Source of the DNA: Macrostomum lignano
Lineage: Eukaryota
Assembly (NCBI GenBank): GCA_002269645.1
Contig: NIVC01001713.1
Location: forward strand, 124,001 to 188,000
Length of the DNA stretch: 64,000 bases
Reading direction: 5' to 3'
Below the pieces are notes generated by a model. That model was not told where the DNA came from. It searched no databases and saw only the letters and a program-made list of their open reading frames with translations. Of this stretch, positions 12,773 to 64,000 are shown piece by piece. Within the stretch, counting starts at the first letter, position 1, and each line of letters opens with the position of its first letter. Position numbers and translations under genes: made by a program.

Positions 12773-15418
12773 TGTGGTGGAGGCGGCGGCTGCTGATGCA
12801 GTGGAGTCTGCGGGTACAGCTGCGGCGGCTGCTGCTGCTGATGAAGATGCTGCTGCTGAGCCTGGAGATGGTGCTGTGGCAGCTGCTTAGCGTGAGCCTG
12901 TGGTATGTTAGGGTGCTGAGGCATGGGCGTCTTACTCGCCACCTGGGCTTGCATGCCGCGCTGCTGCTGCTGTTGCTGTTGATGATGAAAAGCCGCGCCT
13001 GCTGCTGACGGCGCTGCTGCTCCCCTGCTGTCGTTCAAGTGCGGCGGCGGCGGCCTGCTGAGGATGGATGGACTTCACGTGCGATCGGAGAGACGATTTG
13101 CTGGCGTAGCTTTTGCTGCAGTGCTTGCACATGAATTTGTGAGCTGGCTGAGCTGCCACCTGCTGCTGCGGCTGTTGCAGCTGCTGCTGCTGCTGCAAGT
13201 GCTGGAACTGCGGATGTTGCGACTGATGCAGCTGCTGATGATGCTGCGGGTGATGCTGCTGCTGCATCAGCTGCTGGTGGTGCTGGTGATGATGCGCAGC
13301 CGGCGGAGCGCCGCTAGCAGCTGCGGCGGCTGCGGCGGCCATGTGCGGCGCGGCGAAGAACTGCGGCGCGTACATCATCTGGGCGGCGGCGGCAGCGTGA
13401 TGCGGCTGCATAGCGGCTGGGAACCCAACTGCGGCCGCGGCGGCGGCGGCGGCGGCGGCAGCTGCCCCAGGCTGTCGGAAATGTTGATGAGCAGCGGCCG
13501 CCAGCTCGTGCGGCTGTAAGTGAGATTGAGACTGCTGCTGCGACTGCTGCTGTTGCGGCTGCTGATGGTGATGATGCTGTTGGTGATGGTGCTGCAGGTG
13601 CTGCTGCTGCTGCTGTACGGCCGCTGGACCGCCGGCTGCCATGCCGGGCACCTGCGGTTGCTGCGGCGGCGGCTGCGGCGGCATGGGCTTGCGCGGAGGC
13701 ACCCTGGGCGCGTGATATGCCTCGTATTGTTCCACGTCGATGCTCTCGGCGTTAGCCAGAATGTCGTCCAGGCCTGTCATAGCAGTGCCAAGCGATTTCC
13801 AATCCTTCGGGAGCGACGATTGCGGCGTCTTCTGCTGTTCTTCGGCCAATTCTGCCGGCTTCTCGGCCTGGGCCTGGTCGGGCTCGGCAGTGTCCGAGTC
13901 GCGCGGCTCGGCCTCGCCTAGCGACACGCCGCTCGTGTCCAACAAACTGACGCCGGTGTCGGCAGTCGGGACGGCGTTCGCCGAACTGGCACCTTCGCCA
14001 TCGTCGCCGCGAGCCTGCTCGATTGCCGAAGTGTCGACGGCGGTAGAATCCTCGGCTGCTAAAGATTCGCTTAAGTTAGGCGCAGCGGAGTCTTCAGTCT
14101 CTACTATTGGCTTTTTTGCGTCATTGCCATCTATGCCAGATTCAGTAGTTTCAGCTGCCGCCGTTTTTTCATCAGTGGCAGCAGTAGTTGATTCTAATGC
14201 GGAATCCGGAACAGCATCGGCAGCAGACGGCTCCGTATTGAGCTTTTCTCCATCATTCAGAGCGGGCGCATCGTCTTCTGTAGCAGTCTCGGGCATTAAG
14301 GTCTCGTCTTGAACAGTAGGCTGCTTTTCTGGCAATTTCTCTGACTGGAATTCCGGACCGCGCTCGATGGAAGGCTCAGTCTCCATAGTAGCAGGCTGAG
14401 CTGCTGCAGCTGGGGCAACCGTTGGCGGTGCTAAATCTTCTTTTTCCAACTCAGCAGACTGCTTAATTGATTCAATAGACTGTTCAACCGACTCAGCAGG
14501 TTGCTCTGTCGACTCAGTGGACTGCTCAATCGACTCAACAGACTGTTCGACTAAATCAGCATTAGCAGGCTGCTCAATTGACTCAGCTGACTGCTCAACT
14601 GACTCAGCTGACTGCTCGATTGACTCAGCTGACTGCTCAATGGACTCAGCTGGCATCTCAACCGACTCAGCTGACTGCTCAACCGACTCAGATGGCATCT
14701 CAACCGACTCAGCTGACTGCTCAACCGACTCAGATGGCATCTCAACCGACTCAGCTGACTGCTTGATCGACTCAGCTGACTGCTCAACCGACTTAGCTAA
14801 TTGCTCAATCGACTCAGCTGACTGCTCAACCGACTCAGTTGGCACCTCGACTGACTCAGCTGGCATCTCAACCGACTCAGCTGGCATCTCAACCGACTCA
14901 GCTGACTGCTCAACTGACGCAACTGGCATCTCGATTTTCGCGGCTGACTGCTCAACTGACTCAGCAGTAGGCTCAGCCGATTCAGTACTCTGCTCAACTG
15001 TGTTTGACTCAGCAGGCTGCTCAGGCGGCCCAGAAGAATCGAATTCCTCTCCTAATTCAGCACCAGACGCTTGCTGCTCCATTTGAAACACCTCCGATGC
15101 AACTTGAGGCTCTGGCCGATCAGGCATAGATGATTCAGCAATGTTATTTTGACCTCCGCCAAAGTCTGCCACTTCCTGAGCTCTATCAGCTTTGACAGGC
15201 TCCATCTGTGCTTCAGTATTAGGCAATTGTTCTTTCAGAATGCTTGTGTCTGTTGGAGCAGTCAGACTGGAGTCCAAAAGTTCTCTAGCAGCAGCAGGGG
15301 CTGCATTATCTCTGATGGGTGGCGCACTGTCACAGTTGGAATTTTGGTCATTAGAGATGGCATCAGCTGGTGGAGGCGTCGGTGACTGAGCATCAGCCAT
15401 GCAACGGCAGCCATGCAT
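9368..15418 (-). CDS. C2H2 zinc-finger protein with polyQ/polyA tracts and an N-terminal acidic heptad repeat; complement(join(9368..9759,10942..~15400/15418))
   Basis: Four C2H2-type fingers: FMCKHCSKSY..SHVKSIH; CPVRNCSQVF..RHIAEMH; CPWPGCGKMY..AHTCKH; CQLCDYRC..RHHRQC. Phase-1 GT-AG intron 9760-10941 joins ...SSDS to AAKPDPYRSF...NHRYPF*. Apparent frameshifts near 12772, 12996 and 13023; the last two are absent from the duplicate copy. Confidence 0.8.
9845..10920 (+). repeat. Intronic satellite: ~20-21-bp GTGTGGGATTTCGATTCTCA units, then ~31-bp GTGTGGGATCATGACTTAAGGTGTGTGATTT units
   Basis: Tandem units fill the last intron of the zinc-finger gene. Confidence 0.95.
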
Positions 15419-16384
15419 TAATTCAATTAGTAGAAGTAATTAAACTTTTAACTTGATATTGCTTATTTGAATTTTTAAATCAGTTTCTATGTACCATTGT
15501 GCTATTCTCTAAAACCTATAGATAAGAAGTTGTAAATGATGCCTTCTAACTAAAATGCAATTAAAGCATCATTTTTCAATAAAATACCTGTCAATGTTAA
15601 CTTAATATTTTCAGATAACTTTGCCTGAAAATATTTTGTTTATCAGTATCCATTTTAAAAATTAAATGCTTCCTAGAAAGTGACAGGACAATTTAAACAT
15701 ATTTTAGTAGCAGAATTAAAAAGTTAAATTTTATCAATAATTTTTTCTATGTTTTCATAAAAATTATTCTATAAACTAAAAAGTTTTTAAATAGAAAAAT
15801 AGTAAAAACCAAAATGTAAGACCAAATAATATATTTCCACTTTTAATCTTTTTAACAATTGAAAATCTATTTGTAACTTAGATATCAGTCAAAACAATAT
15901 GTTCAAATAGCTCAATTAGATAATAAAAAATACAATACAGAAATATCAAGTTTAAATTCAAGCTTTTAAATCTTAAGTCCATTATACTAAAATAAATTCT
16001 TTTATATAGAGCTCTCTAACTCATATTTTACAGTTTAGATATATACGCTTGTATATTTATGTGGGGAAAATTGTTCCTGTCTTTGAAATATCATTATTAA
16101 AATATTCATTGAAAAATTACTTTGTTTAGATATCAGATAGAAAAAATTATATTCTAGCTTTACTAATACTTATATTAATGGCAAATATCTATATTAAAAT
16201 TATATTTTATTTACTTATTCAAGCTCTTGAAATTATTTATGGTAAATTATAACTATAACTAGGCCCTAAAATTACAATTTATATGAGACTTTTAGGTCTG
16301 TATTATACAAAAAACAGTATACTAAAATAATTAATTAATAAGAGATTGGTATCATATTGGGATACAACTTATAACAACCAACTT

Positions 16385-17246
16385 TACAATGTTTATCCCC
16401 AAAGTAAGTTTCCCTCATATATAACTTAGCACTGAAGATGCTCAGCTAAGTGCCATGTATATTGTTGCTTTTTTGTCTATGGCCTAACCCCAAATAGGTT
16501 GTTAAGTCCTAGCATGTTTTTGAGTTGCATGCCTGCAACTCAAGCATACAACCCTTTGCAACCATGGCCACATTGAGCTCATTCTCTTGCTACAACTGTG
16601 CTATCTAGAAAATTGATATCAGAGATTCACCAAAAACTTGTAAGATTCCTAGGAGAAGCTACACTATTTATTCAAATGGTCAAGAAGTAGGTGTGGGAAA
16701 TTTGAGAAGGATGGGACTGCACAGAAGACAAAGAGCATTCTGGATAACCAAAGTGAATGCTAAGTATTATTGATGGGTGCTTCAAGAGAAACTGCAACCA
16801 GTGATAAGGAAAAAGCAACTAGGCCTTCCGGAGAAAGGTATCATCTTCCATTACTACAACACCCCAATGCATTAGGCCAGATAGGTTGAAGAGCTGCTCA
16901 ACTCCTAGAACTGAGAAATTCTCTACCACTTATACTACTTGCCTGATTTGGTTCTAGCAGACTTTAATCTGTTCCCAAAGATAAAAGAGAGCCTTTGTGG
17001 CTAGCAGTTTTGGATCTGAGGAGCAGATGAACAATAGCACTTCATCAGCTTTCCAACATCTGGGAATCGCCAGCTGCAAGCCTGATTTTGAAGTGTAGGT
17101 GCATTGCTAGGAAAAGTGCATTGAGCTTGGTGGCCAATTTATAGAATGACAAATACTTGAAGTTGTGGCTAGACAAATTATATATTTTTTAAACTTTGCT
17201 TACTATTAGCAGCTGACTGAAACTTACTTTTGGGATATACCTTATA
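16385..17246 (+). mobile_element. Decayed, internally deleted Tc1/mariner element (copy 2)
   Basis: Same TIRs and transposase remnant as 3488-4345. Confidence 0.75.
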
Positions 17247-20200
17247 GTCTTCTACTTGTTGAATATATAATTATAGATTTAAAATAGTTTATAAAAATAT
17301 TTTAATTAATCTTTTAATATTAATATTTTACAATTTAACAATTATTATTTTAAAACAAAAATTAAAACAGCTTGATTTACTCAAATATAATAAGTGATTT
17401 TTATAAATAGATATATAGAAATATTTCCTAATGTTTATACATAAAAAGTTAAATGATCTCATTTTGCTTATATATTTTTATAACCATGGCAATATATATA
17501 CTTGACAAGGTTCTTATGTCTTATAACCTAATACCATTAAACACTAGCTAACTTAGTTGATTTAGCCTATATAATTATAAATTATAGACAATAATAGTAT
17601 CCTAAAAAATAATAAATCATAAAATAAATGATCTTTTATATATTTATTTACTTTTTTAGTCAAGGTATAAAACAGTTTTTTTTAAAACTAGTTTATTTAT
17701 CACATGGCTAATATAATTTTATAAGTTGTATATCAATATTGGCAGCATTTTTCTGTTATCTTTTTTGTCCTTTTTTTAGGAATAGTTTTCGTAGTTTTCA
17801 TTTTCGTAGTCGTATTCATATAATAGTAAAAATAATTTTCTTCTTATATTAACAATATTATATTAACATATTAACAAACAAGACAGCTATCTTTACTTGC
17901 TAAAGATACTGTAAAAATAGTTTACAATTTGTTACATACAATTTAGCTGCAATAAAATAGTACAACCTTGCTTTAACATTTGTCTAAGAACTATTCTTTT
18001 TATATTATTTTTACTTTATTTTTGAACTGTTAAACTATATGTAAGTTGGAAGAAGGGAAAGTGCCAGGTCAGCCAAGACTGGGCCTGAAACCAACGACTG
18101 CCAGGCTTTAGCTAGGTTGGGCAGAACTTGGCTGGTAGGCACAGCCGCAACTTCACTAGGTAAGCTAGTGGGTCAAGCCATGCTCATAGTAGGTCAGGCC
18201 AGGGCTGTAGCCTAGCGGTAGTGCAGCTGCACTGGTGTGCCAGTGACCTAGGCTCAATTCCAAGTGCAGTCACATTAATTTAGGGCTGAATTGCAATCTC
18301 AGCTTGGCTCTGCTTGTGTAATTAATAGCCTTGAAAGCCAACCTCCTAAGGCGCAGTGAAGTTTACATGCCTAACAATAACGATAGTATAAAGTTAGCCA
18401 CTATATATTCCTATGTGTGTGTGCCTGCGTATGTTTTCTTACACTTGTATGCCTGCTCAGGGGAGTCAGCAGAATGGGCAGTAATGCCTCTTGCCAGTTG
18501 TGTGCCAGGGTGCACACAACTCCCTACCTCTAATAAAATTAAATAAAGTTGAAAGAAATACATTTATGATTGAATAAATTATCATTAAAACAGAATAATC
18601 TAGAACTGATAATCTAGAACTGATTCAAGTCTATAGATCAATAGCTTTTTAGTGTCTTCAAGTTCCCTTATAAAAACTATAAACTATTTAGATTATACAT
18701 GCCAACACCTGTCCAACTTATCCAAACTGGATAAATAAAATGGCTACTAGCCAAGGAAGTTGCAAAATAAAAAATGGGAAAAAAGAAAAATTGGGAGAAA
18801 AAAAGGAGGAGTAGGCTTAAAACAAGTTATTCCTATGATATTAGGCCTATGCATAAGGATAAGCATTACCATTATGGCAGTAATATATATTTCAAATATT
18901 TATTGTTATGATTTAACCAGATTATAATTAATAGATAAGATATTTTAAATGTTTAAGATTTAAAATTAAAATAGAAATTTTTATATATACCCAGGTTTTT
19001 GCTAACAATAGGCCCTAGGCCTAGGTCTAAAAAATAAAATACAAAATTGCATCTAAGCCTTAACCCAGTCATATTTGAGGATATAAATTTAAATTAATTA
19101 TAAATATAAATACAATAGACCCTATAAATTTGAAGTCAAAATGTTATAAATCCTAGTTCCTAGCTAGTCTAAAACATTTTTAGACTAGACTATATGTAGT
19201 CGTAGACCATATGATTTATCTTTAAGAAAGAAACTTTTAGGCCTAAATAGAGCCATATGGGCATTAAAAGAAAAAAAAATTTTTTTTAACACCAGAAAAA
19301 TGTTTCTAAATTATCCCTTTACACTATAAAACCTTTGTTTCCATTATAAGAAACACATTGCAGCTAAGAAAAAGCATTTTCTGAACCACTGTTTTTTTAT
19401 TCATTTTGGCTTCAATTTTATATTCCTCCTAAAAAATGGTCAACTTTAAAAATAGACAGTGCAAAAAGTATAACAAAGCTAGACTTGCAGTTGGTGTCAT
19501 TTGAAAGAGCTCCTTTTTACCTTTTAAATGCATATTTTACTTTCATCCTGGCTTCTATAGTTTCTTTAAAATCGCCCTTGAAAAATTGGACTTTTTTCTT
19601 ACTTTTTTGCCATTGGCACGCACTTCTTATAACTCACTGAAGTCCCTACCTAAAAAGAAATAATGCTAGGCCCTGGCCCCCTATCATTTTATATAAATAT
19701 TGTAAACCATATATAGACTATTTATTTGGTAGTACTAGTATTCTATGCCATGTAGGAATCTTTTAAGCCTACCTAGGGCCTAGTCTAATAATTAGGCAAT
19801 AACTCTACATAATGTAGGCCGAGAAATTTATTTACCAACTACTGAAATACATTGAGATACTAACATTGATACTATGTTCCCCCAGTCTATCAGTGCACAA
19901 TGTGTTAAATGGATTCAATCTTCAATGTGCAGTGTGCAAGCGTACAAGTTAAAAGAATTCTTGGGACAACAATTAGGTCTAGACCGTCTAGGCCTATGGC
20001 ACAAAACATAAGCAGGTCTAGCGGGTAGCGGCTACTGGCTAGCGGCCTTGGCTTAATAGGTGAACACTAAGTTGACCGCATACCTTTTAATTTTGTTATC
20101 ATCACTGATAGTATGCCCTAGTCATAGTGCAATAGGTCGAGTATCTGCGTACAAATTGTATGCGAATAGGCCTAGCGCTAGATTGTCTATTAACAAGACT

Positions 20201-48977: not shown

Positions 48978-49108
48978 CTAGAAATGCAGTAGAAATGCAG
49001 TTTCTTATGTAAACACAGTCCTACAAATAAAGATTCTTAGAAACGTTTCCTAGAAATGCAGTTTCTTATATAAACACAGTCCTACAAATAAATATTCTTA
49101 GAAACGTT
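48978..49108 (+). repeat. 61-bp AT-rich satellite, left part (~2 units), target of the pPolB element
   Basis: Unit TTCTTAGAAACGTTTCCTAGAAATGCAGTTTCTTATATAAACACAGTCCTACAAATAAAGA; continues at 58615. Confidence 0.9.
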
Positions 49109-50019
49109 ACTACTAAGGACCCATTTATGGCTTGATTTTGGAGGTGAGGTGGGTGTCAACCCTCCTCGCCTCTCATTGGCTGGCGCCCCGATCACTAGGT
49201 GATCGATACCCGTATCGATATCGGCGCTCGGCGCGCGCGCGCCGCAGGCGCGTGGCGCCAAGCGCCGTCCAGCCGCAGGCGACCCTCCCCAGCCACCGGC
49301 GACCCTCCCCAGCCGCAGGCGCACCTACCGATATGTATGCTCACCCTACCGACATGTACCCCGATATGTACACCCTCCCGAGCCGCAGGCGCACCCTCCC
49401 GAGCCGTAGGCGCCCATGCGGCAGACGCCCATGCCGCAGACGCCCATGCCGCAGACGCCCATGCCGCAGGCACCCCGAGTGTACACTCTACCGAGCCGCA
49501 GGCACCCCGAGTGTACACTCTACCGATATGTACACTCTACCACTCTCCCGATATGTAGTCAACGATATTAGGCTAGTGAAAACTACTTATAGTAGGTGAA
49601 ATTGAGTATATTTACATAAAAATGTAGATAAAACATATTGGTAGGTGAATAATGACGCATATTGCATATTAAAATGTACATATTGGAGCATATGAGCAGC
49701 AAAAACACACAATGTAGGTGTATGGGCAGAAATAGACAAAGCAGGTACTGTAGGCGCTACATAGGTGGAAATACACACAGCAGGTTTACAAAGTGAACTT
49801 TCGATACATATCGGATTAATGTATAAAGCAGGTTTACAAGGCATGCATAAGGTGTAGTTGTATAATACAGGCACGCATGTATAATCAGATTATAGGCAAA
49901 CGCCCAGGTGCAACAGACGCGTAAATAATGTCGCACCGACTAAAGAGTAAATATTGTCTAACCCGCAGGTGCATAAATATTAAACAAAAGCGGTTCGGGG
50001 AAATCCCAAAAGGGAGGTT
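49109..50019 (+). repeat. Left terminal inverted repeat (911 bp)
   Basis: Reverse complement of 57704-58614. I saw only two mismatches, both near the inner end. Confidence 0.95.
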
Positions 50020-50332
50020 TTAGCCGCCCGTTTTCGCCACCGCCGCCGCCGCCCTAACCCTCTTATAGGTACAATTGCGTTGAAAGTATTTCGAGTCATT
50101 AGGTTGTAATGACCCTCCATATTTTAGGTGGGTGGACTCGAGCCCGGGGCCAGCCCATTTCAGTTTTTTGGGCCGGCCCCTCTGCCAATTTCCTCCCTAG
50201 GAGCGAGCTATCAGAATTGGTCTTTTAACCCCCGTGTATACACACATAGAGGCCCCCAGCTAGCGCCCATTCTAACCTACCCAGTGTACAGTGTTGGGTT
50301 CCCCAAACCGCGTACAAAGAGAAATACCCTTA

Positions 50333-51347
50333 TCAGTCAATCTCCATACGCTCCCTCAGGGCTGTCTCGTACGCGGCCTCTTCCTCCACGCTCTCGAAGC
50401 AGTAGTCGGATGACTGGCAATGTGGAAATTATAACAGTCAATGCAGATAGAATATATGCAAGGTATATGATTAGATGAGTTGTGTATATAATGTAATATC
50501 TTACCAAATCTAAATCGTCCTCCAGCCGCCACAGACGTAAAGACGCTGTATAGCGCACCAACGAAAGGTGCTCCTCCCAGTTGGAGGGCCATGCGGCGGG
50601 CTCATCCCACGCGGTTGGCCGCGCTCCCGGACCGGCCAGGTACGCCTCAGAGTCGGGGGCATACGAATTGCGCCCCATCAACCAGTCCTGGTGCAGAGTC
50701 TCAGCCTCCAACACCTCCCGTAGGCCGGCACCCCTCGCAACCAAAGTATCAAGAACCCGATTAAAGGCTCTGACAAAGGTAGCTTGGGAGGGCAGCCCGC
50801 CAGGATGCCGAGACCTCAGCCAGTCAATGTCCCCGCGGAAAAATGAGGCCACAATGCGAGGAAAGCGCTCACGAACCACGGCGATCTCCTCAGACATATC
50901 CTCGTCCTCGTCGTCGAAGAGAAGGAGCGTAGCGGCTGATGATATTGAGGCCCGGTGGGAGGTAGTTGAAGCAGCAGCAGAGACGGGCGTAGTAGAGGCG
51001 GCAGCAGCAGAGACGGGCGCAGCAGAGGCAGGGCCGGTTGTGGTCAGCTCCTCAACAGAGACGTCAAAGAGGGCGGCTGAGGCGGTAGTCAAATCGGAGG
51101 CAGTAGCAGCAGGGGCACCGTTCACAACCCCGCCGATAGCCAGCAGCGGGAGGTCAAAAACTTCAGACTCGGTGTCGCTATCATAGGACATAGCCCAAGC
51201 TAGATATTGATCAGCCTCCCAATTATCAGTTCCGTTGTTTTCAGTGCCTAGGGGAACTATGTGTTCAGGGATATCCCCGTCGAGGCTGGTTAACTCTTCA
51301 GTCGGGCGATTATTATCCCAGAGGTTGGATAGAGCTCGGCGGGACAT
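50333..51347 (-). CDS. Orphan acidic protein, ~307 aa, one intron; complement(join(50333..50413,50505..51347))
   Basis: Long ORF. Donor TTG|GTAAGA at 50504 and acceptor TTGCCAG at 50414 replace a hydrophobic read-through tail with SSDYCFESVEEEAAYETALRERMEID*. TATATAA box at 51421-51427. Confidence 0.7.
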
Positions 51348-51420
51348 GCTAGAATCAACAGAGAGTAAAGTATTAGAGCTGAGATAGGGTTTGACTCTCT
51401 GGAGAGGGGGGAAACACTAA

Positions 51421-51427
51421 TTATATA
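51421..51427 (-). promoter_or_regulatory. TATA box for the orphan gene
   Basis: TATATAA about 75 bp upstream of the ATG at 51347. Confidence 0.45.
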
Positions 51428-51463
51428 GACGGATCGAGTGAGGCGGTGCGAACCAATAGGAAA

Positions 51464-51996
51464 CTAGCAGTCCCAACCCTCGTTAAACAGATTTTCCCAG
51501 GGTGGAGATTGGTAGGGTTTGAGACCCATGAGCTGAAGAACATCCACCTCAGTCCCGGCTACCGGAGGCGTGTCTGTCTTGACTCGCTTGGCTGGAGGGG
51601 GTGCCTCAGGTGCCGGCTTGAAGAGCTTGTCCAAACGGGCGGCAAACATCCGGCGCCACAGTTCAGGCGTGAATTCGATCGTGTAGCGCCAATTAAACTT
51701 TGGGTCCTGATTGAGCCAATTGCGCAGCAAACGGATCCTCCCTCGCGAAGCTTCAACTGCCTTGAAATTGCCCAACAGGACCCGCTTGTTCACGTGAAGG
51801 CGGGCAGCAGCCTCCAGGTCAGGGCGCGCGCTTCGAGCTTCTTCCACTCTGGCTCGGCCAAGTAGATTGCAGGGAAGCCGTCCTTCCACACTCCGGCCTC
51901 GTTGGTGTAGAGACGCCGAATTTCAATCAAGTTGTGTTCAGTTTCAAATGTGGGCTTCCGCGCCACAAAGTTTTCGTATAGAGAGATAGAAGACAT
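51464..51996 (-). CDS. Tandem PC4-like ssDNA-binding protein, ~177 aa (one apparent 1-bp deletion near 51830)
   Basis: Repeat 1: LIEIRRLYTNEAGVWKDGFPAIYLAEPEWKKLEA(A)RPDLEAAAR vs human PC4 [44 protein letters not shown]. Repeat 2: VLLGNFKAVEASRGRIRLLRNW...TIEFTPELWRRM. Restoring one base gives 534 nt. Confidence 0.65.
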
Positions 51997-52041
51997 GATT
52001 TAGCAGCAGCAGCAGAGAGCTCTCTGACAGCCGTGCAGCGC

Positions 52042-52164
52042 CTTATATACCCCCGGTGGAGGGTGGGGTGGGTGATGATTTTGGGGTGATTTTTGATGAT
52101 TTTGGTTGGTTTTTGGCGATTTATCCAATAACAGGCGAGCTGAGCAGATTTTTTAGTATATATA
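52042..52164. promoter_or_regulatory. Compact divergent Pol II promoter: TATATAAG (minus, 52042-52049) and TATATATA (plus, 52157-52164)
   Basis: Each box lies about 45-70 bp upstream of the PC4-like ATG (51996) or the pPolB ATG (52235). Confidence 0.55.
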
Positions 52165-52234
52165 CAGACCCCCAGAGCCAGGGTAGAGAGATAAATCCTT
52201 CTCTCTCCGCTCTCTCACGCTCTCTGTTTGCAAA

Positions 52235-55200
52235 ATGGCTAAACGCAGCGCCGCAGCAACTGCTTTCCTGGCTGACAAGAGGCAACGTCTTTATGGTAAG
52301 TTTTAATTAATTTCTGTCTAGACTGTAGTTGCTAGGGTGGGGGTAGGGGCTGAGCAGCAGCAGCAGCTGCAGGGTCTGTGGGACCGCAGAGTAAACAACA
52401 AAGACTGCTGCGACAGCTGCAGGGGTCTAGACTGGAGTTGCTAGGGTGGGGTGCTGCGGCAGGGTCTGTAACAGAGAGTTGCAGGGGAGGGCTAGACAAG
52501 TTTCAGCCGGGTGTGTGCTGATAAGAAATTGCTGCTAGGGGGGTGTTGTCCAGACAGGCTGCAGCTGGGGTGCAAATTGCTGCGACAGAGAGTTGCAGGG
52601 GTGAGTAAACAAAGACTGGGGTGGGGTGTTGTCTAGACAGGGAGGGGTGTGCTGATAAGAAATTGCTGCAAAAACAGACAGTTGCTAGGGTGCTGCGGCA
52701 GATAAGAAATTGCTGCAGAATCGTTGGGGCAGGCTAGACAAGTTACAGCCAGGTGGGGGCAGAGAGTTGCTGGGACTGTGTAGCGCGGGGACAGACTGAT
52801 AAGAAATTGGCAGGGGCGCTACCCAGACAGGCTGCAGCTAGGTGCAAATTGCTGCGACAGAGAGTTGCAGGGGTGAGTAAACAAAGACTGCTGCGACAGG
52901 CTGCAGCGGGGGTGCAGATAAGAAATTGCAGAGAGTTGCTGCGGGGACAGCAGAGTAAACTCTGTTAAGAAATTGCTGGGGCTAGGGCGGGGAAACACGC
53001 TGGGGCCAGGAAAATGACAGATTCTTCTGGTTTTTTATCTCCTTGTGTTTTTTCAGACGCGTTTGTCCCGCCAACACAGCCGGAATCTGTTACCGGACCG
53101 GGTGAGTTATCCAGCCCCCCATTTCCCACACAGACCCTAGCTGACTCACACTCCCCCATTCCCCCCATGCAGGTTTTACGGCCCGGCTGGATAATCAGCG
53201 TGACCTGCCCAAGTTTAGGGCAAAGGGTGTCGAGTATGTGGTGCATATTACCAACACCGAAGATTTGCGGGAGGTGTTTGCTGACATGCTCGAAGTTTTC
53301 AAGCAAGATTTGGCTGGTGATGACTTTATGGCCGCGAAATTCGAGAGCGACAATATGCTCAAAGCGGCCCACACTCCCCCGGTGCGTGCATCCCGCATGA
53401 CGGCTGAATTGTTGTTTAAGCACATCAACAAGATTGTACAGTCGGATGCCACTGTCCTGACGGGCAACTTTTCTATCCGGTTGCTAAAGGCCTGGGTGCC
53501 TCGAGGTGGATGTGCTCTCGAGAACAAGCATCTAGAAGAGCGACACGCCTTCTCCAAGCACTATGTCCGCATCACCAACTCGGACAAGAGATGCCTGCTG
53601 CGCGCTCTGGTCGTGGCCTGCGCCTACCTGCAATTCGTGGCCAAGTCCATCACCAAGCAGGTGTGGCACACAATCAAGGCCAATTCGCCCACGCAGACTA
53701 AGCTGGTGGCTGAGCTACAAATCGAAGCGGGTCTCTACTCGGTAAGTTGTGTACTGATAAGAATTTTTACACAGTATCATGGAATACTAATATTTTCTGA
53801 TAAGATTTTTACGATAAGGAATACTAAAAGAATTTTTACACAGTATCATGGAGTACTAAAAGATATATTTTCTGATAAGATTTTTACACAGTATCATGGA
53901 ATACTAAAATTTTCTGATAAGAAATTTTACGATAAGGAATACTAAAAGAAATATTTTACCCTCCACACAGACTCTTCAAACCGTCTCGCAGGCTGGTCCT
54001 TTCGGCGTGGATGCACTGCCCGAAGCGATCCGTGCCCTGAACCGGCTGCATCCGGGGCACGATTTTGGTGTACGCGTGTACCGCGCAGAGGAGGCCAACA
54101 GGTGCATCTTCAACCTGCCTGGCACCGAGATTCTGCACCTGCACCTGGTCGAGCAGCACTTTAATGTGGTTACCAAGCTGCCTGCGTTTTTCGGCTCCGT
54201 GCGCTACTGCCCCAAGTGCGAGATGGCCTACGACTGCGCCAACGCCAAGCACAAGTGCGCGATGCCTGCAGTACATGCAAGACTCCGGGCTCCAACTGTA
54301 AGGCAAACCGCGCATATGTAAGATGCCATGATTGCGGGCTAAATTGCTATAATGCTCAGTGCCTAGAAAATCACAAGCGCAAGAATAAGGCCGGCAGATC
54401 GCGCTGTGATTCGGTCCACGTTTGCGGCACGTGTGGCTATCTAGAAGAACTAAAAGTAGGCCAGCCCCCTGAGCATCAGTGTGGTTACGCCAAGTGCCCA
54501 GTCTGCAAGCAGTACGACGAAACTGCCACCCACGAGTGCTTTGTCACCCCGCCCAAAGCCAAAGAGTCTAGCGCCCCGTATGTTTACTATGATTTCGAGA
54601 CGTACGTGGACTCTGGCAAGCAGCACCGGGTACACTTGGTTACGGCTGCCACCTCCTGCGAGGCGTGTCCCAAACTCTTCCCCAGGCCCCGCTGCAGCGT
54701 GTGCGGGGGACTACACAGCTCAGCCAATTGCATTGCGGGACGCGATTTGGCACTCGATTTCACGAGCTGTGTCTCGCACAATGACTGTGCCTGTGGGATG
54801 CGAGAGTTTGTATCTGTCGGGCCGCACTCTATCGATGCCTTTTACTGCTGGCTGACTAGTGTGTTCAAGCAGGGGGCAATTGCTATTGCGCACAATGGCT
54901 CTGCGTATGACGCATTCCTCCTGCTCGGCGCCCTACTCAACGGACTGGCCAAGAAGAAGCCGCAAGTGATCTTCCAGAACAGCCGCCTAATGTATATGAA
55001 GTGCGACAAGATCACCTTCAAGGACAGCCTCAATTTCATCCCTATTGGTCTGGCGCAATTCCCAAAGGCGCTTGGTTTGGGCACCCAACTGACCAAAGGA
55101 GATTTCCCGCACGTGTTTAACCAGCCACAAAATTGGGGGTACGTGGGACCCTACTGCTCAATTGATATGTATGGAGGAAAGAAAAACAAGCAGCACGACT

Positions 55201-57346
55201 CCATCGCAGACTGGCTGGCCAAGCAGGAGGGACAGGTGTTTAATTTCAATAAGGAGTACCTGGACTACTGCCTGCAGGACACGTTAATTTTGCGGGAAGG
55301 CTGTCTGAAATATACCCGCCTGATTAAGGACATTTGCGGACTGGACGCATTTGTCAATCCAACACCATTGCGGGCTTGGCTATGGCTGTTTTCACCACCA
55401 AGTTTATGGAGCCCAACACTCTTGGGGTGATTTCCCGCCGGTCCGATGTACAGTCGCACAAGGCGCGGTGCTGGCTGGCACATTTAAATGCAACCGAGTT
55501 TGGCGGCCGGTTGCGGACAGCGGACTCGGGCGGCGAGGCTTTCGCCATGGGCCGTAAGGTCGACGGCTTCGACCCAGAGACCAGGACAGTGCTGCAGTTT
55601 CATGGCTGCTTCTTCCATGGCTGTCCCAAGTGCTTCCCCAACGGCGACGTGCTGCACCCGCTCAAGAACCAGCCAATGCGGGCGATTTATGAGGAGACTG
55701 AGCGCTTCACCCGGTTGCTCTCCACTGCATACAATGTGCGTGTTCTGTGGGAGCACGACTATCAGGACGAGGGAGCGCCAGTCCAGCAGCCTATTCGCCT
55801 GGAGGATGCCCTGTTTGGCGGCCGTACCGAGGCTTTTGTCCCGCATGCCGAGGCCACCGAGACTGTAGAGCTGCGCTATCGGGATGTGGTAAGTTTGTAC
55901 ACTTGTACACACAGTTGACATGCGTTTGAGTTTATCTTATCCTCTAATTCTCTATTATCCTTATCCCCTAGGTGTCGCTCTACCCGACTGTCAACAAGTT
56001 TGACAAGTACCCTGTCGGGCACCCGGTTCACCACCCCGAGCCTCATCTACTGGATGAGCAGCAGCTGGCCCGGTATTTTGGCATCGCCGAGGTGTCGATT
56101 CTGCCGCCAACCAATCTCCACATCCCGCTACTGCCCGCCAAGATTAACAAGAAGCTGGTTTTCGGCCTCTGCCGCGTCTGCATGGAGACCCAGTGCAGCA
56201 GCGAGTGTACACACACTGACGCTGAGAGAATGCTCCGCGGCACGTGGTCGACCCCAGAGCTCCACAAGGCCCTGCAGTTGGGTTACAAGCTGCAGTCAGT
56301 TCATGCCCTGGCCTATTGGACCGAGACTCGCACGGGCCTGTTTGCAGATTATGTAAACACCTTTTTGAAGCTCAAAGCCGAGTCTAGCGGTTCGCCGGGG
56401 ATGGCTGAGGACGCCAAGGCTGCCTACATGGCCAGCTTTTTCGAGCGCGAAGGCGTCCGGCTGGAAAAGGTGGAGGAGAATCCTGGCCTGCGCTTTGTTG
56501 CCAAGATTTTTCTAAACTCGTAAGTTTTTCTACTTGCAGTGGGGGGCCATGTTTTTCTACTTACATAAAATTTATTTTTCCCCTGCAGGCTCTGGGGCAA
56601 ATTCTGCCAGCGCGACGACCTGACCTCCACAGAGATTGTGGACAGCTACGAGGCGTGGCTGCAGCGCCTGACCGACCCCTCGATCAAGGTCAAGTCGTGC
56701 GAGCCAATTGGGGAGAGCTTCATGATGCTCGAGTACAAGCCCCGATTTGGCGGTGCTGGCGAGCGGGCGTTCAAGTACGCTAATGTGCCTATTGGCGTTT
56801 TCACCACCTCCCACGCCCGGCTGCGACTCTACGAGGCTCTGGAGGGCCTAGGAACCCGAGTCATTTACGCCGATACTGATTCGTGAGTAATTTTTTCAAC
56901 TGTCTCTGTCTCTCTTTCTCCCCTTAACACTTTATTCTCCTCCTCCTCCCAGGGTTGTATACCGCTGCTCACCGGGCGAGTACGAGCCTCCGGGCGGTTC
57001 GAGTTTGGGGCAGTGGACTGACGAGGTACCTGCTGGCTGCCGCATGGTACAGTTCACCACGGGAGGCCCCAAGCTCTACCGGTACGTGGTGGAGAAGCCT
57101 GACGGGTCGCTGTACTCGGTGCTCAAGTGCAAGGGCATCAGAGTCACCCCCGAGATTTCCGAGCGCGAGGACGAGCTGCAGGAAATTCTGCGTCACGGCG
57201 GGACTGTACGCCTGCCCCAGGCCCAGTTCAGGCGCGATAAGGCTAGCTGTACAATCCGGACCCTCGAGATGGACAAGACTTTCCAGCGCGTAATGACTAA
57301 GAGGGTGTATGGGGCTGCTAGCCGCCCGTATGGCTTTCGGGAGTGA
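52235..57346 (+). CDS. polB: Protein-primed family B DNA polymerase (Polinton type), ~1269 aa, 7 exons: 52235..52295, 53057..53101, 53173..53741, 53992(or 53971)..55888, 55972..56519, 56589..56882, 56953..57346
   Basis: ExoI YYDFET, ExoII HNGSAYD, ExoIII YCLQD, FGGRTE, motif A RDV|VSLYP, motif B KIFLNS|LWGKF, motif C YADTDS|V, KxY/KCKG. All six introns are GT-AG and phase-consistent. Two 1-bp deletions (near 54258 and 55355) restore a 3810-nt frame. Confidence 0.92.
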
Positions 57347-57703
57347 GTGAAAGATAAGGATCTGTCTTTGCACGCCTGGGATTCCCCTATGTGCCCACTT
57401 GGGATCCCTTGACTCGTGGGGATGAAAATGGTTTTACGCCCGCACTGTACTTAGGGGTCCTTACTCATTTGGCGCCTCCACTGTACATTGAGCGGGATCC
57501 CCTCAAGTGTTAAAACTCCCATTTGACACCTATTCCCTCGGGGCGGTTTGTGGCCCAGCGGTCCGCCTCTTGGAGTAGAACTCCTGACATGAACTTGCTG
57601 CGCTGGTTAGCGTACTGATAGCGCAATCGAAATACGTTGTCCATTTTTCTAGCCCACTTGTGGGTTTAATTGTGTTGAAAGTATATCGGGTCATTAGGCC
57701 GTG

Positions 57704-58614
57704 AACCTCCCTTTTGGGATTTCCCCGAACCGCTTTTGGTTAATATTTATGCACCTGCGGGTTAGACAATATTTACTCTTTAGTCGGTGTGACATTATTT
57801 ACGCGTCTGTTGCACCTGGGCGTTTGCCTATAATCTGATTATACATGCGTGCCTGTATTATACAACTACACCTTATGCATGCCTTGTAAACCTGCTTTAT
57901 ACATTAATCCGATATGTATCGAAAGTTCACTTTGTAAACCTGCTGTGTGTATTTCCACCTATGTAGCGCCTACAGTACCTGCTTTGTCTATTTCTGCCCA
58001 TACACCTACATTGTGTGTTTTTGCTGCTCATATGCTCCAATATGTACATTTTAATATGCAATATGCGTCATTATTCACCTACCAATATGTTTTATCTACA
58101 TTTTTATGTAAATATACTCAATTTCACCTACTATAAGTAGTTTTCACTAGCCTAATATCGTTGACTACATATCGGGAGAGTGGTAGAGTGTACATATCGG
58201 TAGAGTGTACACTCGGGGTGCCTGCGGCTCGGTAGAGTGTACACTCGGGGTGCCTGCGGCATGGGCGTCTGCGGCATGGGCGTCTGCGGCATGGGCGTCT
58301 GCCGCATGGGCGCCTACGGCTCGGGAGGGTGCGCCTGCGGCTCGGGAGGGTGTACATATCGGGGTACATGTCGGTAGGGTGAGCATACATATCGGTAGGT
58401 GCGCCTGCGGCTGGGGAGGGTCGCCGGTGGCTGGGGAGGGTCGCCTGCGGCTGGACGGCGCTTGGCGCCACGCGCCTGCGGCGCGCGCGCGCCGAGCGCC
58501 GATATCGATACGGGTATCGATCACCTAGTGATCGGGGCGCCAGCCAATGAGAGGCGAGGAGGGTTGACACCCACCTCACCTCCAAAATCAAGCCATAAAT
58601 GGGTCCTTAGTAGT
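57704..58614 (-). repeat. Right terminal inverted repeat (911 bp)
   Basis: Reverse complement of 49109-50019. Confidence 0.95.
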
Positions 58615-59410
58615 AACGTTTCCTAGAAAAACAGTTTCTTATATAAACATAGTCCTACAAATAAAGATTCTTAGAAACTTTTCCTAGAAATGCAGTTTCT
58701 TATATAAACACAGTCCTACAAATAAAAAATTCTTAGAAACGTTTCCTAGAAAAGCAGTTTCTTATATAAACATAGTCCTACAAATAAAGATTCTTAGAAA
58801 CTTTTCCTAGAAATGCAGTTTCTTATATAAACACAGTCCTACAAATAAAAAATTCTTAGAAACGTTTCCTAGAAAAGCAGTTTCTTATATAAACATAGTC
58901 CTACAAATAAAGATTCTTAGAAACTTTTCCTAGAAATGCAGTTTCTTATATAAACACAGTCCTACAAAAAAAGATTCTTAGAAACGTTTCCTAGAAATGC
59001 AGTTTCTTATATAAACACAGTCCTACAAATAAAGATTCTTAGAAACGTTTCCTAGAAATGCAGTTTCTTATATAAACATAGTCCTACAAATAAAAAATTC
59101 TTAGAAACGTTTCCTAGAAAAGCAGTTTCTTATATAAACATAGTCCTACAAATAAAGATTCTTAGAAACTTTTCCTAGAAATGCAGTTTCTTATATAAAC
59201 ACAGTCCTACAAATAAAGATTCTTAGAAACGTTTCCTAGAAATGCAGTTTCTTATATATAAACACAGTCCTACAAATAAAGATTTTTACAAACGTTTCTC
59301 AGATATGCAGTTTCTTACAAACACATTCCTACAAACAAAGATTCTTAGAAAGTTTCTTAGAAATACAGTTCATCTCTACAAATAAACATTTTTTGAAACG
59401 TTTCTTAGAC
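58615..59410 (+). repeat. 61-bp AT-rich satellite, right part (~13 units)
   Basis: Direct; resumes at the duplicated AACGTT. Confidence 0.95.
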
Positions 59411-59451
59411 TTAGATATACAGATACAGTCAAATTAAAATGTTCATCTCAC

Positions 59452-59792
59452 CTGTTAACCGACACTCCTCGACGGCGAATTTGGTCGGCCTCCACTCGAG
59501 CTCTTCGCTGAGCCTCAGTTTCCGTGGCCCTACGCTCACTTGTGCGCCGCCGAGCTGCAGTTAGGCGCTCTTCTCGCTGAGCGTCGGTCTCCACGGCACT
59601 CCGCTTAGCCTTTTGCTGTCGGAGTCCAGCCAGGCGCTCTTCGCGCTGAGCGTCGGTCTCCCTGGCCCTTCGTTCAGTCTCCTGCTGCCGGTGTGCAGCC
59701 AGGCGCTCCTCTTGTTGAACAGCGGTCTCTTGCTGACGTTTCTTTTTGGCATCTCTGCTCTTTTTCAAAGCGCTGGTGCCACGTCGAGCCAT
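59452..59792 (-). CDS. First exon of an STPR-repeat protein (four 23-aa repeats; FMBP-1-like or Helitron RepHel N-terminus-like)
   Basis: ETAVQQEERLAAHRQQETERRAR / ETDAQREERLAGLRQQKAKRSAV / ETDAQREERLTAARRRTSERRAT / ETEAQRRARVEAD, with an exact 23-aa period. Donor AACAG|GTGAGA at 59451. No downstream exon found. Confidence 0.6.
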
Positions 59793-60239
59793 TTTAGAAT
59801 TTGGATCGAAAAATATGATAGGAATTGAATTGAAAAATAAGATAAGTAGAATTAGAATGAAAAAGTAAAGATAGTCTGAGTGAGGGGTTGTGTGATAATT
59901 GACAAAGATAAGAAAATAATCATGACAAACATTTTAAACTCAGCGCACCACCGCCACCCCAAAAAGCTGTACACTATTCAGTGTTAATAAATGTACACTA
60001 AACGTAAATTCTCTCCAGCGCCCGCTGCTAATTGGTCAAGCTGCCCTTTAAAGCCAAAATTCTCCTTACAAAACTGCTAATAAAATGGTCAAAGTCAACA
60101 AGCAGCGATAAACAAATAGATGTGCAAATACTCGTGCACATTTTACACTCATCTTTTTTACCACAAAGTTGTTAGCAATGTTGCATTGAAAACTTTCAAT
60201 AAAAATCGCTTATTTATATGAAAGTCGCTCTCTGCAATG

Positions 60240-60865
60240 CAGTCTTGGTCTTGGTAATCCTTGGTTTATTAATAGCAATAATCTTTGGCTTCTTGTAATC
60301 CTTGGTTTATTAATAGCAATAATCCTTGATTAATCAAGTGCATTAATCCTTGGTTTATTAATAGCAATAATCCTTGGCTTATTGAGTGCAGTAATCCTTG
60401 GTCTGCCAAGAGCAATAGTCCTTGATTTAATCCTTGGTTTATTAATAGCAATAATCCTTGGCTTCTTGAGTGCAGTAATCCTTGGTTTGCCAAGAGCAAT
60501 AGTCCTTGGTTTATCGAGTGCAGTAATCCTTGGTTTATTAATAGCAATAATCCTTGGCTTATCGAGTGCAGTAATCCTTGGTTTATTAATAGCAATAATC
60601 CTTTAATAATCCAGTGCATTAATCCTTGGTTTATTAATAGCAATAATCCTTGATTAATCAAGTGCATTAATCCTTGGTTTATTAATAGCAATAATCCTTG
60701 ATTAATCAAGTGCATTAATCCTTGGTTTATTAATAGCAATAATCCTTGGCTTCTTGAGTGCAGTAATCCTTGGTTTGCCAAGAGCAATAGTCCTTGGTTT
60801 ATCGAGTGCAGTAATCCTTGGTTTATTAATAGCAATAATCCTTGGCTTATCGAGTGCAGTAGTCT
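60240..60865 (+). repeat. 24-bp minisatellite AATCCTTGGTTTATTAATAGCAAT and variants
   Basis: Direct. Confidence 0.9.
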
Positions 60866-60929
60866 AAGTGTTTTTATTTAGTCCTTTAATAAAAGCTTTT
60901 AATAAAAAAATTTACACTACTACTTTTAA

Positions 60930-60995
60930 ACTACTTAGATTCGAAGCCAGGTCGCTGCATTAGCAGTCTGGTCTGTTCAGCTCTAGGCTAGCTCT
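60930..60995 (-). mobile_element. Possible tRNA-derived SINE head
   Basis: Minus strand has an A-box-like TAGCCTAGAGCTG and a B-box-like GGCTTCGAATC; not a foldable full tRNA by eye. Confidence 0.3.
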
Positions 60996-61359
60996 CATCG
61001 AAGTTATCAGTGAATTTGTACCACTTATATAATTCAACACTTACACCAAGTCAGGTAGAGTAAAAAGTCACACGAAGCAGTTATGACATAATCAATTTCT
61101 TAGGCAAGTCAGTACCAGTGTCTATGAAAGTTAACAATATGGTTACGTAATATAAATTCAGTACTGCGCTATGCTTTCACACTCAAAGCTGTGACGCAAT
61201 TCAATTGAGTGTCAAATTCAGCCAGTACACAGACGATAAACAAAGTGTATTGTGATGCAATCTATTTCAGAATCAGAATTCAACCAGTCAGTTTTTCTGC
61301 TAGCATTCTTACAATGCATTTCAAGTCGAAGGAGCTGCTTGACCTTTGCAAAAAAGCAT

Positions 61360-61885
61360 GTTTTTCGAATATTTAATCCCTTTAATATTGAGCAATTTCT
61401 TAGCCAAGATGCATGTACCGTCACGGAAAAATTTCTGATCGAACAGTGCAAGTTCGAACAAAATCGGTTGAGCCGTTTTTGCTAAAATCGATCACACACA
61501 TACCGACAGACCATTTTTAGTATATGGACTAGCTAATTAGAGCTGGCTGCCAGCATCCAGAATAATTTTTATTGCCCCCACCCTTTAAGTGGGTCCAGTG
61601 AGTTTTCTTATCAGTTGGCTCTGGCGCAATCAATTAAAATTGACTGTGAAGTTTCTCGCTGATAAAATTTGCATTGAAAAAGGCCATTTAAAACAGTTTT
61701 TCGAATATTTAATCCCTTTAGCATTGAAGCAGATACAAGAAATTTTAACTGTCTTCTTTCCAGACAATTTTGAATGTTTTGGCGAAAACGCGATCAAAAT
61801 CGGTGAAGAATTGCAATCTCTAGAGCGTTATGGACAAGCAAGCATTCAAACATACAAAGCTTAGAGATTTAGTATATTTAGAAGT
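61360..61885 (+). mobile_element. Two related segments resembling 3' ends of non-autonomous Helitron-like elements
   Basis: Both share TTTTTCGAATATTTAATCCCTTTA...AAAATCGGT...TTTAGTATAT (about 61360-61540 and 61695-61885). Family assignment is by resemblance only. Confidence 0.3.
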
Positions 61886-62339
61886 GAAAACGAGTTGCGT
61901 TTTGCGTTTCAAAGTTAACAGTTTGTGTTACATATACCAGCTGTACTGCTACAATACTAAGTGACCGATGTCTTTAGCATACGGTGTGCAGTTGCCAGGA
62001 GCCTCGTAAAAAATTCCTAGTTTCCCGTCCCGGTGTTTGAGTAGTCCCTGGTGAAGGCAAAAAGCATAAGACGTTTGATAAATAGACGTGCGGCAAAGTT
62101 TTTAACTGAGCTTGTTTTTTTAGAAAAAAACACGACATATTTATTGCCTGACACCAGTTTTTAATATTTAGCGAAACTATTTCTGCTAAACGTTTATTTC
62201 TATTTTTAGAAATGTGATTCATACTTGACGTCAGGTTCTTTTTTTAGCAAAACACTTGCTATAATGCCGTGTTTCTATTTTTAGCAACGCGCTGGTGTCA
62301 TAATTCCTGTTTCTATTTTTAGCAACGAGATACATTTCC

Positions 62340-62586
62340 TCAGAACACAGCGCAATCGAAGGGCGTCTTTCTGAGCAGCCGAGTCCAGACCAGCTCGCAC
62401 GCCAGTAGGATCAGGCCAGCGACGTAGAATGCACCAGTGATGATCAGGGCGCCGCCCACGCCTTCCATGTTGATGCTATCAGCCTCTGTTGACATGCCAA
62501 CTGAGCAGGATTGGTCGGGCGCGTCATTCGTGAAGTATTTGGTGAATAGTCGCGAGTTCGCGCCGATTATGTCCAGGTTGCGCAGG
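62340..62586 (-). CDS. Terminal exon of an ionotropic glutamate receptor/IR-like protein (end of S2 plus M4 helix)
   Basis: After acceptor TTAACAG: LRNLDIIGANSRLFTKYF...SC...SINMEGVGGALIITGAFYVAGLILLACELVW...*, matching the iGluR pre-M4 Cys and the GG...E M4 pattern. Upstream exons lie outside the window. Confidence 0.6.
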
Positions 62587-63399
62587 CTGTTAATTCGGGT
62601 GGGGGGGGTAGGAAATCGATTTTAAAGTCTTTTCGATTCTGGAAACAATCTTGTCTTCAGCTTTTCTATATATCTCGAATCATCAACCGGGACACAATTT
62701 TTGAGGAAGTTTGTCGAAATCCTAATGGTAAAAAGGGATACGCTTCTATTTAGATGTAGATAGAGGAATTTTCCTGGTAATCTAGGCCTTCAAAAATTTT
62801 TTTGTGGTACCGCTCGGCCCGTCTCGATTTTCCCTATTATCGCTTATATAAAATCCCTAATCTCGCTTTTACTCTACTGATAGTAGCATAATGTGGCAAG
62901 CGCTCAAATTCTGTCTTTGAAATCATAAGTTAAAAAATGTAATTCAAAACCAATGTTGATTTTTAAAAAGTAGAGATAAAAAATTTCCTTTCTAACTAGT
63001 GAATGGGAGCGCTCTGTTTGAAACTAAATTTATGCCATTCATGCTCCCGGCATCTTAGCAACTTGAAAAGCTTGAACTTTCTTAATTTATTAACTAATCG
63101 CTTAACTCGTGCAGTAAACAGGACTGTTGGGACTTGCTAATTAACCTGGATAGAAACACCCAGAGTTACGTCTCAAGCCATGTGAAATGACACCTGATAC
63201 AAAACAAGTTGTTAAAGTTAAAAAAAGCTGTGTTCTCGTCTGTACGTGGCTAATTGGGACCCAAATTCGTGTAGCTATCAAGTTTGTCTAACCTATTTAA
63301 TTCTATCCAATAAACTTAATCCCATTCTCTGTGTACGATCCCCATTCGCGCGTATCTTCCCATGCATGATGCGACCAACTTAATCCTCATTCACCCAAT

Positions 63400-64000
63400 T
63401 CACTCCTGAGTCACCTAACTCATTCCCCATTCACACAACTCATTCCCCATTCACACAACTCATTCCCCATTCACACAACTCAGTCTCCATTCACACAACT
63501 CAGTCTCCATTCACACAACTCAGTCTCCATTCACACAACTCATTCCCCATTCACACAACTCATTCCGCATTCACAAAACTCAGTCTCCATTCACACAACT
63601 CATTCCCCATTCACCAAACTCACTCCCCATTCACCATACTCAGTCTCTATTCAACCAACTCACTCCCCATTCACACAACTCACTCCTCAGTCACCTAACT
63701 CTTTCCCCATTCACACAACTCAGTCTCCATTCACACAACTCAGTCTCCATTCACACAACTCATTCCCCATTCACACAACTCATTCCCCATTCACACAACT
63801 TTTTCCCCATTCACACAACTCAGTCTTCATTTACACAACTCAGTCTCCATTAACCAAAGTCAGTCTCTATTCACACAACTCACTCCCCATTCACCCAACT
63901 CAGTTCCCATTCACTAAAGTAAGTCTCTATTCACCCAACTCACTCCCCATTCACCAAACTCACTCCCCATTCACCATACTCAGTCTCTATTCACCCAACT
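63400..64000 (+). repeat. 20-bp minisatellite CATTCCCCATTCACACAACT / CAGTCTCCATTCACACAACT
   Basis: Direct; intronic in the iGluR-like gene. Confidence 0.95.

Follow-up and report, generated by a model that had tools for sequence, protein, structure and literature searches.

In a stretch of 64,000 nucleotides of the Macrostomum lignano genome (assembly GCA_002269645.1, contig NIVC01001713.1, positions 124,001 to 188,000; hereafter, the window), the gene of a virus-type DNA polymerase, pPolB, is divided by six segments that are real introns of the host type. The gene sits in a 9,506-bp element (49109-58614) with 911-bp terminal inverted repeats (TIRs), 100% complementary to each other, inside a satellite array. 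I consider it probable, at about two in three, that this is a multi-copy Polinton derivative of 9.5 kb which has six host-type introns in its polymerase gene, likely copies itself, and likely borrows its integrase from resident Polintons. The copies fall into two subfamilies, family A, to which the window copy belongs, and family B.

Six host-type introns and their age

Splicing was assessed with contigs of four runs from four studies, mapped to window positions 50020-57700; the runs are presumed to be of RNA, and the contigs give neither level nor strand. All six donors are GTAAGT or GTGAGT, and the acceptors are CAG or TAG. Introns 2, 4, 5, and 6 are spliced out in contigs of all four RNA-like runs and intron 3 in three of them, while the joint of intron 1 was seen in one. 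Direct joins at introns 4, 5, and 6 were found at none of 30 genomic loci; in that count, the three introns are present at 29, 30, and 3 loci, respectively, and the other anchors were unmatched. An alignment of family-A copies has introns 4-6 in 20 of 20.

A preliminary description of this gene had proposed six introns. All of its donors and five of its introns are exact, but intron 3 ends at 53970 and not at 53991. The corrected acceptor, which makes an intron of 229 nt, is exact in two runs and shifted by 2 nt in the third. It lies 21 nt upstream of the proposed one, so that seven codons are gained, and the family-B intron 3 ends at the matching upstream place. The positions given for introns 4, 5, and 6, RDV/VSLYP, FLNS/, and DTDS/ (slashes mark introns), were correct, and the latter two introns each split a Ser codon. 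The predicted junctions, for which spliced reads had been proposed as a test, have joints in RNA-like contigs in all six cases, that of intron 3 at the shifted acceptor. Five of the six introns would disrupt the reading frame or introduce stops if kept, so the output of pPolB protein needs splicing, and the proposed dependence on the host spliceosome holds in this sense. The introns had also been called frame-restoring. However, the frame of the window copy changes twice inside exon 4, near 54260 and 55355, so removal of the introns alone leaves no open frame. At these two sites, the window differs from 18 of 18 and 20 of 20 covering copies and from contigs of all four runs. The breaks are thus probably an assembly error or a private lesion of the window copy.

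A search of Rfam over 49000-58700 gave no match up to E 0.1 and no ribozyme. None of the introns has an endonuclease open reading frame (ORF), and four are shorter than 90 nt. They are mutually dissimilar, apart from a weak similarity of intron 1 of family A to intron 3 of family A and to intron 1 of family B. Introners, sets of like introns scattered over unrelated genes, were considered and rejected; intron 4 matches polymerase copies only (40/40).

Is the splicing regulated? The preliminary description suggested tissue-specific or piRNA-linked control, as in P elements. The third intron of the P element is known for regulated retention. A comparable switch would retain an intron, most plausibly intron 1, under tissue or piRNA control and would allow the polymerase only in permissive cells. 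Intron 1 is the longest intron in both subfamilies (761 and 998 nt), and an mRNA that kept it would be translated for 23 codons before a stop. Each of the four runs has contigs inside intron 1, whose joint is the one seen in a single run, against four of four for introns 2, 4, 5, and 6. On the other hand, the contigs give no level, strand, or tissue, and the CAG repeats in intron 1 attract unrelated contigs. All 18 full copies have the consensus GTAAGT as their intron-1 donor, the donors in general are near-consensus, and four introns are spliced out in every run. I regard such a switch as unlikely.

A genome search with exon 5 gave 127 matches; 45 of them are full-length with 95-100% identity and make up family A, and about 26 with 67-72% identity make up family B. 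In a set of 20 family-A copies, 18 can be aligned from end to end of the gene and have all six introns, and two are without the 5′ part. All seven exons are stop-free at the expected lengths in eight of the 20, the other 12 being truncated or frameshifted in the assembly. Exon lengths are nearly fixed in family A, and intron lengths vary (488-762 nt for intron 1 and 65-89 nt for intron 4). The ratio of nonsynonymous to synonymous divergence (dN/dS) is 0.075 for family-A exon 4 (eight of 11 copies tried, with one reference). Judging from these sequence comparisons, the pPolB exons are under purifying selection.

Introns 3, 4, and 6 have their donors at the same codon positions in all 12 family-B stretches, and intron 5 does so in 11 of them. 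The positions of introns 1 and 2 match in one fully read copy. Family B was rejected as an intron-poor control; its frames of 867-873 amino acids come from an intron 4 of 81 nt that is in frame and stop-free, and the same introns are present. The exons of the two families are 56-75% identical in amino acid sequence (dN 0.30, dS about 2.9). Introns 2-6 align between families no better than shuffles, and intron 1 is weakly similar (z 4.0). Since the six positions are the same and the synonymous sites are near-saturated, the introns predate the split of A and B. The long nuclear residence suggested in the preliminary description is supported by this age. LINE-type retrotransposons lie near the start of the family-B pPolB at L063:1410-6083 and L065:2587-5322; in L063, the reverse transcriptase ORF (1,558 residues) shares its reading frame with the start of pPolB.

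Introns in the catalytic motifs

pPolB matches PF03175 in exons 4 and 5 and has the exonuclease (Exo) and polymerase (Pol) motifs. Conservation was scored by aligning 60 pPolBs out of 89 long database sequences. Introns 4, 5, and 6 lie at the 99th, 98th, and 91st percentiles, and introns 1, 2, and 3 at the 3rd, 8th, and 53rd, where introns 1 and 2 were placed by an assigned low score. The placement in motifs has a P of 0.004 by permutation and 0.012 by a binomial test, both post hoc and with six introns. No intron interrupts Exo I-III or the VSR motif.

A similar case was found in a 16.8-kb metagenome contig (L174), a Polinton with integrase, capsid-like, and ATPase genes. Its pPolB is split at EFYG/CVYHGC, in the VSR motif, by a candidate intron of 120 nt (L174:6816-6935, GTAAGA..TTTTAG) that contains a stop; motifs A, B, and C are without introns there. 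The rarity of introns claimed in the preliminary description is therefore to be narrowed. A multi-intron pPolB, like this element family, was not found described in the literature text searched (Repbase and supplements may hold some), but an intron-split pPolB is not unique, as this full Polinton has a candidate intron. Four other database pPolBs (P0030, P0079, P0112, and P0150) stop just past conserved motifs and have intron-like tails; they are unverified and were not counted.

Why are motifs A, B, and C interrupted? It may be that introns arose and persisted at conserved sites that are cut by the nucleases of competing elements, where they would give immunity and could be lost only precisely. 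This reading is favoured by the presence of VSR or HNH nucleases in related pPolB2s (10.1101/2023.08.22.554363; papers are cited throughout for those parts of their text that were available). The Pol-c intein sits at YGD/TDS (PMC549080). I offer the nuclease reading tentatively, with the odds somewhat against it. The other answer is chance, or simple retention without nucleases, with the element otherwise as described here. There are just six introns, of which three lie at low or middle percentiles, the Exo and VSR motifs are intron-free, and spliceosomal introns reportedly have no preference for conserved sites, unlike inteins and group I introns (PMC2814812). Both P values speak against chance, as does the candidate intron in another conserved motif of the unrelated Polinton L174, and I find this answer possible but doubtful. 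If the clustering of spliceosomal introns in catalytic motifs holds, it is an exception to this reported restriction of site preference to inteins and group I introns (PMC2814812).

The 9.5-kb element and its company in the genome

As summarized in Table 1, the element has two genes besides pPolB. The PC4-like protein of the window shares 41% identity (E 1e-29) with a protein from family B for which Pfam gives PF02229. The orphan gene was seen in 17 of the 31 family-A stretches examined and gave no useful match in Pfam or Atlas. One family-B copy of 10.4 kb has a dUTPase gene (L058:6907-7434) similar to that of a large co-resident Polinton. The N-terminus of pPolB, which from its Cys/His motifs may hold a terminal protein and a vOTU protease, gave no Pfam match and a weak single-sequence fold (pLDDT 38). 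A sequence search of PDB was blank. VSR-like motifs, VDGF and QFHGCFFHGC, precede motif A (a match of motifs alone), and P0024, a database neighbour of pPolB, is named VSR endonuclease.

Table 1. Features of the element in the window (slashes mark intron positions)
Feature	Position	Strand	Basis
Left 6-bp target site duplication AACGTT, inside satellite array	49103..49108	.	sequence
Left TIR, 911 bp, begins ACTACT	49109..50019	+	
Orphan gene, acidic, Ala-rich, one intron	50333..51347	-	3′ end read by eye
Orphan-gene intron, 91 nt, GT..AG	50414..50504	-	joint in 3/4 RNA-like runs
Gene for PC4-like ssDNA-binding protein, divergent from pPolB, with a frameshift near 51830 in this copy	51464..51996	-	
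pPolB exon 1, 20 codons, basic	52235..52295	+	sequence, copies, run contigs, family B
pPolB intron 1, 761 nt, phase 1	52296..53056	+	joint in 1/4 runs; position shared with family B
pPolB exon 2	53057..53101	+	sequence, copies, family B
pPolB intron 2, 71 nt, phase 1	53102..53172	+	joint in 4/4 runs
pPolB exon 3, predicted from motifs to encode the terminal-protein region plus the first half of a vOTU-like protease	53173..53741	+	
pPolB intron 3, 229 nt, phase 0, acceptor corrected	53742..53970	+	joint in 3/4 runs; family B agrees
pPolB exon 4: Cys-rich region, Exo I-III, VSR-like insert; two frameshifts in window copy	53971..55888	+	PF03175, motifs
pPolB intron 4, 83 nt, phase 0, within motif A (DV/VSLYP)	55889..55971	+	joint in 4/4 runs
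pPolB exon 5	55972..56519	+	PF03175, E 2e-13
pPolB intron 5, 69 nt, phase 2, within motif B (LNS/LWGK)	56520..56588	+	joint in 4/4 runs
pPolB exon 6	56589..56882	+	sequence, family B
pPolB intron 6, 70 nt, phase 2, end of motif C (DTDS/)	56883..56952	+	joint in 4/4 runs
pPolB exon 7 to stop	56953..57346	+	sequence, motifs
Right TIR, 911 bp, ends AGTAGT	57704..58614	-	
Right 6-bp target site duplication AACGTT	58615..58620	.	

With four Polinton integrase queries, there was no tblastn match at E 1 in eight elements including that of the window. For capsid, packaging ATPase, and protease, the ORFs of three full Polintons matched only PC4 and dUTPase in six elements, and the window element has no room or ORF for a major or minor capsid protein, packaging ATPase, or Ulp1 protease.

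The ends are 5′-ACTACT..AGTAGT-3′ in family A and 5′-ACTACG..CGTAGT-3′ in family B. Across 66 stretches, a 6-bp target duplication flanks 56 of 56 two-ended elements (a set that includes palindromic elements), and 54 of the duplications are distinct. Nucleotides 8-28 or so of the TIR (window 49116-49136) are a mosaic of a few interchangeable blocks that varies between copies and is usually the same at both ends; in some copies, the left and right blocks differ. Might pPolB instead be a viral gene, dead or domesticated, whose introns were acquired during a time as a host gene and whose later duplication was passive? Its multi-intron structure and expression resemble those of host genes, and the 12 broken copies among 20 would fit. 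However, the near-perfect TIRs and the 54 different target duplications largely refute this, and there are two subfamilies with many dispersed copies each. I consider it very improbable.

The same genome has 73 matches to the PF21738 capsid and 116 to Polinton-type integrases. In 11 regions with full Polintons, pPolB is a single ORF of 1,000-1,426 residues in eight and is split or broken in three (C201, C759, and C234). This fits the earlier remark that pPolB genes are usually single ORFs, as does the description of Polinton core genes as intronless (PMC8097293). The PC4 gene also occurs in co-resident Polintons, one of which, a full one, has a 6-bp duplication. In a tree of 93 sequences, the two families share a long branch, and the outside proteins around it are 29-41% identical. 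Scans of viral contigs for the DNA around the nearest outside relatives found none. Homologues with 93-99% identity carry the label Macrostomum lignano. A Pox_A32 search of the genome gave no match though ATPase ORFs are visible in full Polintons; it is insensitive and was not used. At C291 (L144-L146), a Polinton of 12.9 kb that has AGTAGT ends contains ORFs for integrase, capsid, and ATPase but no intact long pPolB ORF. At C271:276939-317558, family-A ends lie 40 kb apart around a full intronless Polinton, which suggests a nested insertion.

A pattern search found 248 ends of type A and 77 of type B, and the controls gave 2 and 0. These ends outnumber the roughly 45 and 26 polymerase copies, and each subfamily is accompanied by another type of element that shares its ends and is of similar size, as expected if this were a multipartite virus-like system resembling bidnaviruses, whose other same-ended segments carry integrase and capsid. 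But of 20 end pairs without a polymerase match, 17 are palindromic elements of 7-10 kb (nine A-type and eight B-type), and three have long ORFs like those of inserted retro- or DNA transposons; such pairs were fetched only up to 10 kb, which biases the likeness in size. Eight further A-type palindromic elements were found. These giant palindromes (L115-L119, L121-L123, L154-L160, L162-L166, L168-L171, and L173) are near-perfect, have the ends and 6-bp duplications of A or B elements, and contain no convincing gene. The arms of A and B palindromes share one weak similarity of 24 residues. That they carry a spliced integrase was rejected; one arm had no splice joint in the four runs, and there was no integrase match. 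A set of 20 unpaired ends consisted of degenerate ends, palindromes, or partial polymerase copies, with no integrase-bearing element of this type; the one integrase match among them lies beside retrotransposon-like ORFs. A multipartite system is improbable in my view. Inverted integrase pairs at C2301 and C3189 were rejected, being rearranged canonical Polintons. In these loci (L135-L140), the integrase-capsid module forms large inverted duplications, without pPolB in the stretch read.

If the element is a Polinton derivative that borrows its integrase, nuclear transcription and constitutive splicing would yield a protein of about 1,276 residues with the terminal protein-vOTU-exonuclease-polymerase architecture (for which see 10.1101/2024.03.18.585575). 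The polymerase would copy the excised element from its ends by protein priming on the ACT-ACT triplets, with jump-back. Adenovirus uses protein priming with jump-back on terminal triplets. The PC4-like protein would bind the displaced strand. The integrase would be supplied in trans, and resident Polintons are its simplest source because the duplications are of 6 bp and all ends finish in A-x-T-3′. The giant palindromes would ride on the same machinery. The introns would be old gains, made after the lineage had settled in the nucleus.

Several points weigh against this reading. Its main weakness is that the five integrase-bearing Polintons with placeable ends (C114, C506, C759, C291, and C10) start with AGTAGT, the opposite motif, so that cross-mobilisation is an assumption. 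The proposed integrase donor is a class, the resident Polintons. Seven co-resident pPolBs have no significant similarity to pPolB exon 4. The matches listed include 100 of the 248 A-type ends, and a partner element may be among the rest. The RNA status of the runs is presumed, with the genomic loci as a substitute for a DNA control; the terminal-protein and vOTU assignments are presumptive, from motifs; and the motif statistic is post hoc and concerns six introns.

Elsewhere in the window, positions 22900-44000 and 58615-64000 are densely occupied by minisatellites with units of 8-37 nt and include the satellite that hosts the element. A 5.2-kb duplication (1-5174 and 12897-18082, 99.6% identity, 12.9 kb apart) covers a host gene for a Gln-rich C2H2 zinc-finger protein.

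Relation to known systems

The element works like a Polinton replicon but stands outside the Polintons in integrase, virion genes, size, and terminal motif. Like Polintons/Mavericks, it has a PF03175 pPolB with Exo I-III and Pol A-C, TIRs in the range of 100-1500 bp, a 6-bp duplication, which is the usual size within the Polinton range of 5-8 bp, and a PC4-like gene (10.1101/2023.08.22.554363, PMC8097293). In contrast, it is without recognisable genes for a retroviral-like integrase, capsid, ATPase, and protease, and it has 9,506 bp and six introns rather than 13-25 kb and intronless core genes. It starts with 5′-ACTACT (A) or 5′-ACTACG (B) instead of 5′-(AG)n or (AGT)2; the Polinton motif is reversed. 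Vertebrate Mavericks end in 5′-(AGT)2..(ACT)2-3′ or (AG)3..(CT)3 (PMC8097293). One could go further and propose a distinct class, a spliceosome-dependent nuclear replicon with the polymerase only, a reversed terminal code, palindromic dependants, a borrowed integrase, and motif introns as shields against the nucleases of competing Polintons. I judge this rather unlikely. If true, intron-split pPolB lineages would be a large hidden part of polintovirus diversity.

Among the known groups, pPolB2 with a VSR insert, from Polintons of marine nematodes and molluscs (Jeong et al., 10.1101/2023.08.22.554363), shares the VSR-like motifs before motif A. However, the pPolB described here is 29-41% identical to its outside matches and forms a long branch, and the description of those elements is based on ORFs, with five or more Polinton proteins. 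Capsid-less Polintons, such as those of Trichomonas, resemble the element in having lost virion genes for a transposon life, but they lose virion genes only, while the element here is also without integrase and keeps a selected polymerase (PMC4405056).

With regard to the introns, introner-bearing Maverick/Polinton-like elements of dinoflagellates also have spliceosomal introns inside integrated elements (10.1101/2025.03.18.643946). Their introners are young mobile repeats, whereas the introns here are old, mutually unrelated, and confined to polymerase copies. Inteins and group I introns of PolB likewise interrupt conserved active-site motifs (PMC549080, PMC2814812). In contrast, the introns here are short and of the GT-AG type, and the motif-C intron lies two codons past YGD/TDS, in a Ser codon.

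Surveys for Polintons select for ORFs free of introns and for several hallmark genes (PMC8097293; 10.1101/2023.08.22.554363), and so they discard spliced or reduced lineages as degraded. Because a six-intron pPolB with junction support, purifying selection, and many clean insertions is found in the genome of M. lignano, the transition from virus to transposon, the helper dependence, and any splicing control are open to direct observation in this laboratory flatworm. The P element is a DNA transposon with an intron-bearing transposase gene. Ginger1 is likewise a DNA transposon whose mobility gene has one to four canonical introns, but it encodes a transposase, whereas the element described here encodes a replicase of the viral type (PMC2836005).

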